This document shows, piece after piece, positions 3,719 to 63,545 of a stretch of 64,000 bases of DNA; the first letter of the stretch is position 1; each line of letters opens with the position of its first letter. Under the pieces are notes generated by a model. The model was not told where the DNA came from and made no database searches. It worked only from the letters and a program-made list of their open reading frames with translations. The stretch is from positions 107,074,001-107,138,000 of the forward strand of contig OZ024745.1 of NCBI GenBank assembly GCA_964016885.1, written 5' to 3'. The stretch is from Eledone cirrhosa (lineage: Eukaryota). The position numbers and the translations under genes were made by a program.

Positions 3719-4130
3719 ATATATATATATATACATTTATTAAAATAACAGATTATTATTATTACTATATGACATAACCTGTGTATTTGCTGGCATGGGC
3801 GTGCATCTGTGCGCTTATGTTAGTTGATATATTAAATTATCTATATTTATCTCCAAATCACTGATTTGTCGAGCAAACTTGTCAAAACCACTTCTAAAAA
3901 AAATTTTTTTTGGGGTGTTAGTAGGCGTCAGTCATCTTACCATCCCATTCCTTCTAACTAGCCTCTGTGTCACGTGATTGATTCTTTAGAATCGGCCATT
4001 TGACTTGAAGCAGTGAGAATTTCGGTACATAGAATCCAGTCCTCGCAAGCTGTTCGATCTACCGAATTATTATTATTTTTATATGAGCCGCCAGTGTCCG
4101 CGCATTGCCTGGAGACTTAACTGAGAATAG

Positions 4131-4212
4131 ACTTCCTGATGACGCAATGAATTCTCGACAGTTGGATTACGTAACTGTCTTTATCCCATTGCAGAAACTA
4201 ATTAGTTGGAGT
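4131..4212 (+). ncRNA. Type I hammerhead ribozyme with extended stem II
   Basis: acttc CTGATGA c gcaatg..[gacagtt/aactgtc]..cattgc a GAAA ctaatta GTT ggagt; palindromic stem III. Confidence 0.8.
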
Positions 4213-4689
4213 GAAAATTTAAGTAAGAAAAAAATTTTTTTTAAATTTTTTTTAAAAAAATATTTTCTTATTTTACGTCCTTTATATTATTGTTCTGCAT
4301 TCTCCTGCATTGAACCACCTAGGTACTATGACATAACCTGTGTATTTGCTGGCATGGGCGTGCATCTGTGCGCTTATGTTAGTTGATATATTAAATTATC
4401 TATATTTATCTCCAAATCACTGATTTGTCGAGCAAACTTGTCAAAACCACTTCTAAAAAAAATTTTTTTTGGGGTGTTAGTAGGCGTCAGTCATCTTACC
4501 ATCCCATTCCTTCTAACTAGCCTCTGTGTCACGTGATTGATTCTTTAGAATCGGCCATTTGACTTGAAGCAGTGAGAATTTCGGTACATAGAATCCAGTC
4601 CTCGCAAGCTGTTCGATCTACCGAATTATTATTATTTTTATATGAGCCGCCAGTGTCCGCGCATTGCCTGGAGACTTAACTGAGAATAG

Positions 4690-4771
4690 ACTTCCTGATG
4701 ACGCAATGAATTCTCGACAGTTGGATTACGTAACTGTCTTTATCCCATTGCAGAAACTAATTAGTTGGAGT
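4690..4771 (+). ncRNA. Type I hammerhead ribozyme, second tandem copy
   Basis: Same sequence as 4131-4212. Confidence 0.8.
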
Positions 4772-5099
4772 GAAAATTTAAGTAAGAAAAAAATTTTTTT
4801 TAAATTTTTTTTAAAAAAATATTTTCTTATTTTACGTCCTTTATATATATATATATATATATATATATATATAATCCTCATCGAGCCCTCTTCGGATTTT
4901 AGTCTTCACATTTATTATTACTATATATATATATATATATATATATATATATATATATACTGTATATACATATTGTTTGATATAGAAATGGCTTCGTGTA
5001 TGTGTGAGTTTTCATGTCTGTATGTGTTTGTGTTTGTGTCTCCAGCTTTGAATGTTAACAGATAGGTTTCAATATCTATTAGTGTGCGTATGTAGTTAT

Positions 5100-6265
5100 T
5101 ATATCCTAAATTTTCTGGAATGTTTGACATATTTTTATAGTTCATTAATAAACTGTACCTGCAACTTACTAATTACCTGTCTTCTTCCTGGCTCTGTGAT
5201 GCCCATCTTCCCCCGGTTTTGTACGGTGGCAGTTAATATATCCAATTGCCCCAATGACACCCAAATTTAAATGTATAGTCAGAATGGATTATCTGTAGAT
5301 TCCTTATAAATTCGGTATACATATTTTTCCTTTCACTGAACTGTAACCCTATTTTATCATCTGCTTGGCAGTTGATTTCCATTATCGTAGATGCCTTCTT
5401 TTCCGTGTCCCACATCATTATGTCTGAATACTTATATCTATATTTTATTGGGATTTTGACTGGAACATTCCAACAATACCATTTCATATTATGTATGCAA
5501 ACGCCCTCCACATCGCAGTGACGTTTGAAATGTTTATCCTCGGCACTATCCTTTCTATGTATTGCATTGTGTAGGATTTTGGACACCACATCGTTTTTAG
5601 GTAGATAGTATCAGGATGAAATCTTCGAATACTTGCTTATGATGTAGATGATATCTTCTATGTTTATTCTGCATAGGGATCATCTGTTGTCATATCTAGG
5701 TGTTTGTCTACATAACTATCTCTTTTCTATACCAGGTATTTCGTTGTTATTCACTGTTTCTGGATTGCAAAAGTATATCCTTCTAAGTAAGAACAAATAT
5801 ACCGATTGTTCGACCAAGATAGACTAATTTTGTTATCTCTATTACTCTTACATTGAAGCTTTCTGACGATATAGCCATACATGAGTGTTTGCTGATAAGC
5901 ATACAACTTTTCTTCCACTGATTTGTTACGGTAGTGCTATGCAATTTCCTTGGGTGAGAGATTTTCGTTATCATTCAGAAAGTACTTCTCAGAAAGCCCT
6001 TTCCCAAATCATATGATTTTATCTGGCTGAAGTAGGGAGACTTGTTCTGTGACCGGGATTGATTCTACGTTTGATGATAAGTTGATACTGTTGAAAGGTA
6101 TAATGCGACATTCAGACGGCATTTAGATCAATGCCAAGCCTTTGCCTCCCTGTTTACAATTTAGATAAAAGTGGTTTATGTCATTATTGATGTGGAAATT
6201 TCCGTTGTCGGTTATTAGAATTCTCCAGGTTTTAATATTATTGAATCGGATCCCTTCTACAGTTA
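5100..6265 (-). pseudogene. Decayed R4/Dong-like non-LTR retrotransposon 3' part (post-RT region, CCHC remnant, RLE nuclease)
   Basis: Translated motifs GNFHINND..KQGGKGL, GYTFAIQKQ*ITTKYL, LCRINIEDI, DVVSKILH..WNVPVK..SDIMMWD..IMEINCQADD; many stops. Confidence 0.75.
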
Positions 6266-6274
6266 AGTAGTCCA

Positions 6275-60200: not shown

Positions 60201-62283
60201 CACCACCACGACTGCCAGCGCAGCCATCACCACCACTGCTACCCCCACCACCACCACAACCACGACATCAACACCGACACCATCACCACCATAACACCGC
60301 CAACACCACCAATCTAACAGCACCACCCTAACACCGCCAACACCACGTATTTCACAGCACCACCATAACACAGCCAACACCACCACGACTGCCACCACAG
60401 CCATCACCACCACCGCCTCCCCCACCCCCACCCCTCACTACCACCACAACCACGACATCAACACCGACACCACCATCATCATCATCACTACCTAACACCA
60501 CCACCACCACCACTACAAGTACCCATTCCCTCACATTTCACTTTACTACCTGGCCATTCAGTACACGCATAATGAAGACGTCTAAAAGTCGCTCACTCGA
60601 TGTTAAAGAACACGCACGCACACGAACACATATAGAATCCTACAACGCACATACACTCACGTACACACATAGAAAGGCACATTCGCACACGCACACCCAC
60701 TATATTTGATATATGTGAGACAGATTTCATTCTCCCATACTTCCTTGTTTGTTTCTTTGTTTATGTGTGTATGTGTCTATGTGTGTGTGTGTGTGTGTGC
60801 GTTCGTGCGCGCGTGCGTGCGTGTGTGTGTGTGCGCGTGCGTGTGTGTGTGTGTGCTTGCCTGCGAGTGTATGTGTGTGTATGTGTTTGTGTGTGTGTGT
60901 GCGCGCGCATGTGTGTGTGTGTGTGTGTGTGCCTGTGAGTGTATGTGTGTGTATGTGTATATGTGTGTATATGTGTGTGTGTGCGTGTGTGTGTACGTGT
61001 GTGTGTGTGTGTGTGTGTGTGTGCCTGCGAGTGTATGTGTGTGTATGTGTGTCTGTTTCTTAATTATTGCCATTATTATTATTTTTATTTTTTCGAGTTT
61101 GATGGATTACATGCTGCCCGAACAACTAAGAATTGTAATACATACATGGACAAAGATACGTCCATACATATTGGCTACATAGAAACAGAATTATACACGA
61201 ACCTTATATATATATATATATATATATATATATATGTGTATATATATATATATATATATATATATATATATATATATATATATATATATATATGTATTTA
61301 TATATATGTATATATATATGTGTGTGTGTGTGTGTGTGTCTGTGTGTGTATACATGCCTCTATTAACTTATACATCTTATGCATATATGTCTGTAGATAT
61401 GGATATATATATATATATATATATACATATATATATATATATATATATATATATATATATATATATATATATATATATATATATATATATATATATATGA
61501 ATACATATATATATATATATATATATATATATATATATATATATATATATATATATATATATATATATATATATATATATATATATATATATATATATGT
61601 ATATATATATATATATATATATATGTATATATATATATATATATATATGTCAGTGTTTGCATGTGAGTATATATCTATATATATATGTATATATATATAT
61701 ATATATATACATATATATACATATATATATATATATATATATATATATATATATATATATATATATATATATATATATATACATATATATACATATATAT
61801 ATATATATATATATATATATATATATATATATATATACTCACATGCAAACTCTGACACAGACACACATACACACACACATATATATATTTACATATATGG
61901 GTGGGTGTACGTGTGAGTATGTATATAAATATATGTATTCCATTCGTGTGCATGTGTGTATGTGTATGTGCATACTATGTTGCATATATGAACACCTTAT
62001 GTGTGTAAATAGAGGAATTGATAAATAAATTTGAAAACTTTCAAACTGACAGCCAAATTGATAATTTTACTTGTTCATGTATGGAGTGTGTAGAAATGAG
62101 TAAAGCGTGTGCGTATACATGTATTGTCTGGTTGTGTGTGTGTGCGTATATGTTTGTGGGTGTCTGTCGTTGTGCATGAATGTGTGTGTTCATGTTTTTG
62201 TTGGGGTGTGTACGTGTGTATAATGACTTTGGTATTTGCATGTGATCCGCATTGATCTATCTCTCGGTTTATGTATCTATATT

Positions 62284-62377
62284 AATTTTACAGAATTAAT
62301 TCTGTTTCGATTCTTAAAGTGTCTGATTTACGAATATTGTGATCAGTTTCTTAAAGAATTAAAGCAGAATTAATTCT
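62284..62377 (-). repeat. Imperfect palindrome containing a half hammerhead
   Basis: rc: ..ctttaagaatc GAAA cagaattaattct GTA; an inverted copy replaces the CUGANGA side. Confidence 0.5.
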
Positions 62378-62489
62378 CTCGAACTAGAATACACTTAAAG
62401 TTAATTGTAACACGTCAAACCATATAACCTAATACAATTTAATTATAGGGTAAATCCAAACGGGTAAATACATGATAGGTTTCATGCCG

Positions 62490-63158
62490 CGTGCCTCATG
62501 GCTGCAATGAAAGTCAGTGCTGCGAAAACTGAAACACCCATCCAGTCAAGGAAGCCTGTGCAGTGCACTCAACACGTAAATGGAGTTCCACTGAAGCAGG
62601 TTTAGAAGTTCAATTATCTCGGGGCCGTGTCCCCAAGTGATGGAAAGTATGATGCTGAATTAAGTGCAAGAATTGTAGGAGCAATTCGCTATCTTCGATT
62701 CGGTATTTGTGCAATCCCTTACTTGTTATCATGAATCTTGGGTAATAACGGAAAGCATACGATCGCGAATACAAGCGGCCGGAATGGGTTTCCTTCGAAT
62801 GGTCTTTTGTGTAACGTTAATCGATACAGTGCGTAGTTCGGGGATCAGAGAGTCACTCCAGGTAGAGCCGCCACTTCTCTGTGAATTGAGAGATCACAGA
62901 TCCGATACTATGGGCATGTGGTTAGAATGTCTCAGGAAAGAATCGGTGGACAGATTTTACGGGTAAAGCCAACCGACAGGAGGCCCAGGGGTAGACCCCG
63001 AGAAAGATGGTTGGATAACATCCGTGAGTTTGGCTGGTCTCGCTTGGGGATCCAGTCGGATCAGTTGGAGATGGTTGGTTCTGACAGGATCCGCTGGAGG
63101 GAGAGTTTGAGGACAGTCTCCACGACCCTCTCAGGAATAAGTGGGCGAAGAAGAAAAA
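62490..63158 (+). pseudogene. RTE (Expander/Rex3-like) LINE 3' fragment
   Basis: [47 protein letters not shown]; (gaa)n tail. Confidence 0.85.
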
Positions 63159-63370
63159 GATTACACACATTATCTTTCTCTCTCTTTCTATACACACACA
63201 CACACACACACACACACACACACACACACACGCACACACACACACACGCACACACACACGCACACACACACACACGCACACACACACACACGCACGCACA
63301 CACACACACACACACACACACACACACACACACACACACACACACACACACACACACATATATATATATA

Positions 63371-63545
63371 TGAAAGACGTAAAATAAGAAAATTATAAAA
63401 ATTAACTTACTTACTAAAATTTCACTCCAACTAATTAGTTTCTGAAAGGGAATAAACATGGTTTCCGAATGGAAACATGGAGAAATCCTTTCGTTATCAG
63501 GGAAGTCTATTCTCAGCTAAGTTCCCAGGCAATGCGTGGACACAG
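63371..63545 (-). mobile_element. Diverged relative of the 559-bp tandem element; HHR at 63424-63506 with core CTGATAA
   Basis: rc shares gtgtcc.cgcattgcctgg..ctgagaatagacttcc, gaaactaattagttggagtgaaa and ttcttattttacgtc, then (TA)n. Confidence 0.85.

Follow-up and report, generated by a model that had tools for sequence, protein, structure and literature searches.

What does selection act on in two hammerhead ribozyme motifs that lie almost 60 kb apart, and what is the role of the conserved block of about 40 nucleotides (nt) directly upstream of them? The question is raised by a 64,000-nt stretch of the Eledone cirrhosa genome (GCA_964016885.1, contig OZ024745.1, forward-strand positions 107,074,001 to 107,138,000), the whole of which is hereafter called the window and numbered from its first letter. 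An earlier note, made from the letters of the window, had proposed that compensatory changes in a two-tier stem II between a copy at 4131 (+) and a copy at 63424 (−) reveal selection on RNA structure, and that stem III and the upstream block stay nearly fixed, the block being an undefined cis-element, possibly a reverse transcriptase (RT)-binding site or a tertiary contact. Based on the analysis in this work, we consider it probable that the repeat carrying both motifs has been copied around the genome by the enzymes of Penelope-like retrotransposons (Penelope-like elements, PLEs), and that the upstream block is the ribozyme's own 5′ module, predicted to consist of a hairpin, of a purine strand that likely base-pairs within the stem II internal loop, and of the strand forming the 5′ side of stem I.

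The letters quoted for the two copies were found in place, and each copy is a hammerhead motif of type I, made up of stem I, the core, a stem II of 51 nt, GAAA, a stem III of palindromic sequence and a predicted cleavage site GUU. The description as two copies was nevertheless incomplete, since a third copy, identical to the plus-strand one, is found at 4653-4771 within the tandem dimer 3768-4846 (arm length 1078), of which 3768-4287 and 4327-4846 are 100% identical. The type I core (CUGANGA...GAAA...UH with three helices, open at stem I) is present at 4136-4212 and 4695-4771, and the minus-strand copy departs from it by carrying A8 together with C3 (core CUGAUAA at 63500-63494, A8 at 63495; outer stem GAAAGG/CCUUUC at 63492-63487/63449-63444; stem I ending at 63424). 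In both copies, the predicted fold of stem II is a hairpin with two tiers (z −4.1 and −3.3, with 1 of 200 shuffles as good in each case). The Rfam hammerhead models gave no match at the gathering score in the window, and with E values up to 5 over 3500-4900 only chance matches of small nucleolar RNA and small RNA models were returned, far below threshold.

The compensatory covariation of stem II holds in a wider alignment of 29 rows, composed of the two window copies and 27 of the 40 cluster representatives of 100 distinct complete copies, the 13 representatives left out, picked by eye, being mostly near-duplicates of subfamilies A, B and C. In this alignment 92.9% of the 955 cells of the named structure are paired, against 31-48% in slid controls, and 84 cells are changed on both sides against 31.7 after shuffling, a count that 0 of 500 shuffles reached. 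Outer pair 2 takes all four Watson-Crick forms and is never broken (U-A 10, A-U 7, G-C 7, C-G 5), and outer pair 5 is G-C in 14 rows, U-A in 14 and G-U in one; on a tree of 21 monomers built with the ribozyme excluded, at least three independent double changes at pair 2 and at least two at pair 5 were counted by eye. Inner pairs 1, 3, 4 and 5 covary too, with more breaks (87% paired), and RNAalifold finds both tiers unprompted. With a value of 0.61, stem II belongs to the least conserved stretches of the unit, and the core letters hardly vary. The letters reported for the change in the inner hairpin are likewise present, but the perfect tttcc/ggaaa run of the minus copy derives from a 2-nt shortening relative to the commonest subfamily-B form, and only the first four inner pairs are column-wise homologous. 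Selection on RNA structure is thus supported by the stem II pairing, the double changes on the tree and the covariation of a predicted pseudoknot described below.

The near-fixity of the upstream block (4094-4135) is seen between the two copies, where 38 of 43 columns match (counted by eye), and weakens in a wider alignment of 12 subfamily representatives, which gives a mean identity of 0.81 for the block and of 0.74 for the unit as a whole. Of all 42-nt windows, 23% equal or exceed the block in conservation, with a maximum of 0.90 in the one covering a 3′ end of the unit (E1, below) and the hairpin of its tail, and the block is accordingly not exceptional within the unit. The earlier reader had almost no flank for comparison, because the 63424 copy is 5′-truncated about 40 nt above the block. 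As an undefined cis-element the block is largely unsupported, for its last 5 nt belong to stem I, its 5′ part corresponds to the loop plus the 3′ arm of a hairpin (P0) starting 10 nt above the quoted block, and related families that keep the fold lack its sequence. In P0, 88% of cells are paired, double changes occur in 4 of 10 pairs and the loop word GUCC is invariant across the 29 rows; a hairpin stands at the same place in the minimum free energy (MFE) folds of most of 19 lineages. Three parts make up the block, namely hairpin sequence, the purine strand GAGAA and the stem I 5′ strand, and most of it is predicted to belong to the ribozyme.

The purine strand GAGAAU (4123-4128) is complementary to AUUCUC (4151-4156), which lies in the 5′ strand of the internal loop in stem II. 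Three further families (F, G and H), reached via a pattern for the tail hairpin, have an upstream sequence unlike the block and keep the two-tier stem II, a purine run 5′ of stem I and, in the 5′ strand of the loop, a pyrimidine run complementary to it, with a hairpin just before the purine run in most MFE folds. Among the pairings met across lineages are GAGAAU/AUUCUC, GAAAA/UUUUC, GGAAA/UUUCC, GAGAAA/UUUCUC and GAGAAG/CUUCUC, with at least five contiguous Watson-Crick pairs in 17 of the 19 lineages. Native partners outscore permuted ones over the 19 lineages (p 0.0007 by energy and 0.0002 by run length) and over the eight distinct types (p 0.0015 and 0.0011), p values that overstate independence, the lineages being related and hand-picked; on the 3′ side of the loop the native partners have no advantage (p 0.76). 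Among the first 100 of 1,348 matches in the D/E clade, tallied by eye, the middle pair is G-C in 62 and A-U in 32, with three G-U pairs and three mismatches. A linker of 2-3 nt would run from the end of the 5-bp stem I to the base of the loop, a plausible geometry. GAGAA and the 5′ side of the internal loop thus likely form a pseudoknot, which covaries within a family (one event) and across four widely differing families, and the suggestion of a tertiary contact is supported for 5-6 nt of the block.

The unit itself is a non-coding tandem repeat of 520-570 bp with a GC content of 35-36%, i.e. below 50%, and with a type I hammerhead in each unit; the only frame of at least 120 amino acids (aa) in the dimer comes from a stretch that lacks stop codons and continues into (TA)n. 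An open reading frame (ORF) with RT and GIY-YIG domains between pseudo-long terminal repeats (pLTRs) was found neither in the unit nor in the window, so that the unit is not an autonomous PLE; such ORFs sit in other elements. By these sequence features the repeat is classed as a non-LTR retrozyme, whose partner PLE was not found among the fetched loci. A search of the 3.0-Gb genome returned 824 first-look candidates for the plus copy, with 41 of the 41 listed matches 100% identical, and 1,877 for the minus copy, with 96-100% identity among the matches listed, and an exact pattern of the core and stem III region occurs at 8,400 places against 0 for its reversed control. The fetched loci yielded 54 distinct cut-to-cut monomers (window cores at 4136 and 4695), which are 522-573 bp long and fall into 12 clusters at 92% identity, the clusters being 69-93% alike and subfamilies A and B about 74% alike over full length. 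In the loci read, insertions are short head-to-tail arrays of 1-4 units, often with an inverted, 5′-truncated second arm; the arrays are scattered over many contigs and the units inside one array are 95-100% identical.

The 3′ ends of these insertions point to the machinery that made them. Among 113 distinct 3′ ends, 56 lie at a short end, E1, some 60-80 nt past the predicted cut, and 57 at a long end, E2, about 115 nt further; TA or TC/TA repeats adjoin 111 of the 113, a bias towards (TA)n targets, and 30 of 32 inverted (head-to-head) pairs combine one E1 with one E2 end (binomial p 1.2e-7). Such a tail, present on one side only and delimited by two priming sites, has been described as unique to PLEs (PMC11167929; PMC8557442; here and below, published systems are cited from parts of the texts). 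Because of the two fixed 3′ ends, the E1+E2 inverted pairs and the (TA)n targets, the retrozyme was assigned to PLE-type insertion. A GIY-YIG scan of the genome gave 10,596 candidates, of which 150 were scored and 90 loci fetched; one element has a 938-aa open frame matching RVT_1 (just under the cut-off) and GIY-YIG, and the RT + GIY-YIG elements of the genome, read by eye, also end in (TA)n at two sites. The idea that the block is an RT-binding site found no support, as the 3′ ends map some 60-80 and 180-200 nt past the cut, around a different hairpin that is widely shared. This tail hairpin, 27-39 nt long and placed between the two mapped priming sites, is a better candidate for the recognition signal of the PLE RT; its pattern has 13,562 matches against 3 for the reversed control and 1,211 for rarer forms, a mis-spaced version (6 matches against 67 in the control) having been discarded. 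Loose matches of the tail motif occur in loci L269 and L282. Loci L122 and L129, considered as a link between PLE and retrozyme, were rejected, their retrozymes being nested in the (TA)n run after the PLE end.

Other explanations of the same data have to be weighed against the reading of the block as a 5′ ribozyme module spread by PLE enzymes. The block could be a separate cis-element bound by the Penelope RT, for which its rank as the best 40-nt window (36/40) between subfamilies A and B, the invariant GUCC of the P0 loop and a similar GUCCNCGC word about 55 nt upstream would speak; we regard this as improbable, as the block sequence is lost in families F, G and H, which have the tail hairpin, the 3′ ends are found some 60-200 nt past the cut, 23% of windows are conserved at least as well as the block, and one tested PLE needed RNA downstream of the hammerhead start, its pLTR being removable (PMC11167929). 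We give just as small a chance to the idea that the purine strand base-pairs with the U-rich strand following the cut and so lengthens stem I, its match to the loop being a by-product of purine/pyrimidine composition. The MFE folds of both copies do pair bases of the CUGAGA region with that downstream strand, but ViennaRNA is unable to represent pseudoknots, and although by chance 13% of 15-nt monomer windows give at least five loop pairs and 6% at least six, the partner permutation keeps composition and scores worse, and the switching between G-C and A-U is position-matched.

Compensated pairs might also arise with no selection at all, if template switching or hairpin-templated repair copied one arm onto the other and the ribozyme were a passenger, and insertions rich in fold-back junctions, as well as row counts inflated by related copies, would fit such a process. 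Arm copying would, however, also perfect the internal loop, which is unpaired and pyrimidine-rich in 19 of 19 lineages; the core stays nearly invariant beside the highly variable stem II, and the pseudoknot partners belong to the arms of no single hairpin, so that we consider this origin very unlikely. Least credible to us is that the unit is the orphan pLTR of an autonomous PLE, spread locally as a satellite by unequal crossing-over and not via RNA. This route has been proposed for retrozyme arrays (bioRxiv 2026.07.22.740005) and would agree with the high identity between units of an array, but the arrays are short, dispersed, 5′-truncated at variable points and 3′-anchored at two fixed sites, as expected of independent reverse-transcribed insertions, and none of the 90 GIY-YIG loci holds a PLE with the retrozyme terminal repeat, though several PLE families are among them.

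The reading as a 5′ ribozyme module spread by PLE enzymes itself has to face a number of results that weigh against it. Two of the five covariation measures, the number of covarying pairs and the number of pair types, did not beat the shuffles (155 and 440 of 500). The pseudoknot has fewer than five Watson-Crick pairs in 2 of the 19 lineages, and the A-U copies of the D/E clade form one clade (support 100/98), which makes the within-family switch a single event. The core is non-optimal, with U17 in 68 of 68 copies and C-A in 65 of 68 at 10.1/11.1, where a base pair, usually G-C, is expected and which is followed by a G-C pair. In families G and H this place is taken by U-U, a mismatch reported as tolerated, with no mention of C-A in the cited passages (PMC3088659). 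No autonomous partner emerged when the monomers were compared with 12 sampled PLE 3′ regions, the similarity not going beyond TA-rich low complexity. In the literature, a PLE hammerhead was dispensable for insertion in vitro (PMC11167929), and eight of nine frog retrozyme dimers did not cleave (bioRxiv 2026.07.22.740005).

Cleavage is approached here through folding and through 5′ ends. In the MFE fold of a monomer (−19.9 kcal/mol) the core is hidden by pairing with stem III, whereas the active fold, computed with no pseudoknot, has −15.2 kcal/mol. This is again an unfavourable result, but co-folding two copies frees the core (−49.4 against −39.8 kcal/mol), in line with reports that PLE hammerheads act as dimers (PMC4209133; PMC6765202). 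In the 40 nt after the predicted cut, 5′ ends are enriched about 2.7-fold (14 against 5.2 expected; nine bins, uncorrected). Enrichment is equal over the ribozyme just upstream (13 observed, 4.4 expected), and none of the arms begins at +1 to +4, so that a sharp pile of 5′ ends at the cut was not found; for these two reasons RT stalling on structure could explain the signal, and as a trace of cleavage the enrichment is suggestive only. In metagenome and viral scans 47 and 4 matches were obtained, none of which folds as a hammerhead, and they are attributed to chance.

The 63424 copy is likely inactive, as the earlier note had supposed. C3-G8 is a core pair with U3-A8 as its natural alternative (PMC3088659), and single changes at C3-G8 abolished a PLE hammerhead (PMC11167929). 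In the 63424 copy C3 is unchanged, which turns the pair into a mismatch, and A8 is rare, occurring in 2 of 100 distinct copies and in 0 of the 100 genome matches listed. Because C3 is kept with A8, the unit is lone and truncated, and A8 is rare, this copy is likely dead.

Based on these findings, we propose that tandem units would be transcribed, possibly from an internal promoter, and that in the transcript the purine strand may dock stem I beside stem II through a 5-6 bp pseudoknot replacing the contact between loops 1 and 2, as the covariation suggests. Neighbouring ribozymes would then likely pair by their palindromic stems III, which, to judge from folding energies and by analogy, could free the core for cutting after GUU and so yield monomers. 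A Penelope-type RT/GIY-YIG protein would nick (TA)n and prime at two internal sites about 115 nt apart, and this two-site priming would give the tandem and head-to-head insertions whose signature is seen in the genome. Only master copies keeping the fold would spread, leaving compensated pairs between subfamilies, and dead single copies such as 63424 would decay.

A more far-reaching picture is that of an animal retrozyme superfamily in which the 5′ hairpin stacks on a purine strand threading into the stem II loop as a triple helix like those of expression and nuclear retention elements (ENEs), offsetting the weak core (C-A at 10.1/11.1, GUU) and gating cleavage to dimers, with the separate shared hairpin between the two priming sites as the recognition signal of the Penelope RT; taken as a whole, this seems doubtful to us. 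In ENE-type U-rich internal-loop triple helices, a pyrimidine-rich loop between two helices grips a purine strand. The retrozyme resembles them in its pyrimidine-rich internal loop and purine strand and differs in that support extends to the Watson-Crick side only. Triplex formation with the U-rich 3′ strand of the loop is possible but unsupported: the putative third strand places U opposite a G-C pair, no canonical triple, in 68 of 68 copies of subfamilies A-C (the D/E clade, where C occurs, being filtered out of this count).

Coordinates of the features are collected in Table 1. The most conserved 20-nt bin of the unit holds the word CACGUG, which we take to be E-box-like and which, from its sequence, is a possible internal promoter; this bin and the second GUCCNCGC word, which is like the P0 loop and lies at 4596-4606 (+), may be promoter elements at the DNA level. 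CACGUG is also present in the 3′ region of the PLE at locus L121.

Table 1. Retrozyme features of the window (positions from its first letter; parts of a feature in its remarks).
Feature	Position	Strand	Basis or remarks
Subfamily-A retrozyme insertion, 5′-truncated head-to-tail dimer	3768..4846	+	period 559 bp; ends at short 3′ end E1 in (TA)n
Upstream hairpin P0	4085..4118	+	10-bp stem, imperfect in subfamily A, 14-nt loop; repeated 4644-4677
Purine strand GAGAAU, predicted pseudoknot partner of 4151-4156	4123..4128	+	covariation
Stem I 5′ strand	4131..4135	+	pairs with 4208-4212; 96% of cells paired on 4 pairs
Hammerhead core CUGAUGA (C3-A9)	4136..4142	+	sequence and structural scan
Two-tier stem II	4143..4193	+	C-A mismatch at base; fold, covariation
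Outer stem GCAAUG/CAUUGC	4144-4149/4187-4192	+	part of stem II
7x7 internal loop	4150-4156/4180-4186	+	part of stem II
Inner stem GACAGUU/AACUGUC	4157-4163/4173-4179	+	part of stem II
GAAA, palindromic stem III (4197-4206), predicted cut after GUU (4207/4208), stem I 3′ strand	4194..4212	+	sequence; dimer energetics
Short 3′ end E1	4268..4287	+	terminal copy 4827-4846; 56/113 distinct 3′ ends
Tail between E1 and long 3′ end E2	4288..4404	+	about 115 nt
Tail hairpin directly after E1	4292..4318	+	common to distant families; candidate RT-recognition element
Most conserved 20-nt bin, with CACGUG	4528..4547 (also 3969-3988)	+	mean identity 0.94, 12 representatives
Second identical hairpin, pseudoknot strand and hammerhead	4644..4771	+	core 4695-4701
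Subfamily-B single 5′-truncated copy	63371..63584	−	ends at E1 in (TA)n/(TG)n
Parts of the minus copy		−	P0 63552-63519; GAGAA 63514-63510; core 63500-63494 (A8); stem II 63493-63443; predicted cut 63429/63428

Additionally, the window and the fetched loci hold other elements. A separate hammerhead-like motif (CUGACGA, GUA site, short stem III) lies at 3620-3690 (+), about 80 nt upstream of the dimer, with one weak relative among the fetched loci (L252, 73% over 86 nt). Hammerhead-like motifs of other repeat families occur at 21660-21800 (−) and 21110-21260 (−), with relatives in many fetched loci, and further tandem or dispersed hammerhead families with a short stem II were seen in L131 (9067 and 9578), L126, L130 and L133. 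The 3′ regions of autonomous PLE families (L121, L139, L133) carry minimal hammerheads with a U3-A8 core and the stem III ACCGGU, to which the palindromes ACCG...CGGU of retrozyme families F and G are related; in one autonomous family GCAA replaces GAAA. At 9971-15352 (−) lies a frameshifted LINE-like element (long interspersed element), in which pieces of an endonuclease (PF03372) and of an RT (PF00078) are preceded by an ORF, and at 5233-5610 (−) an ORF fragment with no Pfam match, whose motifs we take to be those of a restriction-like-endonuclease non-LTR element. Long near-perfect palindromic repeats (2724-2977, which recurs in the window and in other loci, 26916-27160, 6275-6518, 8983-9258 and 20147-20447) are probably inverted insertions of other small elements, and a repeat of about 190 bp resembling short interspersed elements (SINEs) has many copies over 17894-49700 at 85-94% identity.

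Compared with known systems, the repeat resembles the metazoan non-LTR retrozymes, as far as the cited texts describe them, in its non-coding low-GC tandem units, each with a type I hammerhead, its thousands of copies and its co-occurrence with PLEs, and the mussel retrozyme likewise lacks the usual loop 1-loop 2 nucleotides. It differs from them in its unit of 520-570 bp, where 150-450 bp were given for metazoan units (Cervera and de la Pena 2020, PMC7229834) and 51-972 bp for retrozymes more recently (Li et al. 2026, bioRxiv 10.64898/2026.07.22.740005), in a stem II of about 50 nt with an internal loop, in the predicted 5′ hairpin and pseudoknot, and in its dispersed short arrays with the two-ended PLE signature. 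With endonuclease-containing (EN+) PLE insertions it shares the head-to-tail and inverted 5′-truncated copies, the tail at one end only and the (TA)n targets (PMC8557442; PMC11167929), and it departs from them in having no ORF and a tail of about 115 nt against 30-40 nt. With PLE hammerheads it shares the palindromic stem III, a longer-than-usual stem II and an extra base after A9 (PMC4209133), whereas the autonomous PLEs sampled in this genome have short U3-A8 minimal hammerheads and not the long form of the retrozyme. Template choice by the PLE RT and the reason why PLEs carry hammerheads are named as open questions in the cited papers, and these retrozymes would offer short substrates for testing both.

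Neither PLE-borne retrozymes nor hammerheads with pseudoknots are new in themselves. For the particular architecture predicted here, no description was found in paper listings and abstracts, and Lunse et al. 2017 (on PLE hammerhead variants) or the figures and supplements of PMC3088659, PMC4209133 and PMC7229834 may show such forms. In the hammerheads of Perreault et al. (2011, PMC3088659), a Watson-Crick pseudoknot of 4-6 bp from the stem I side to the stem II side replaces the non-canonical loop contact; such pseudoknots were reported in about 40% of representatives and in all three types, with compensatory rescue in a type II example. The retrozyme is alike in that a pseudoknot of similar size is predicted in place of the loop contact, and it differs, as far as texts alone can be compared, in that the published example joins loop I to the stem II tail, while here the donor is a 5′ strand following a hairpin and the partner is one side of an internal loop. 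To these known forms the present analysis adds a concrete candidate tertiary contact for a long-stem-II hammerhead that Rfam misses, in a natural series of at least four families with widely different sequence and the same fold.

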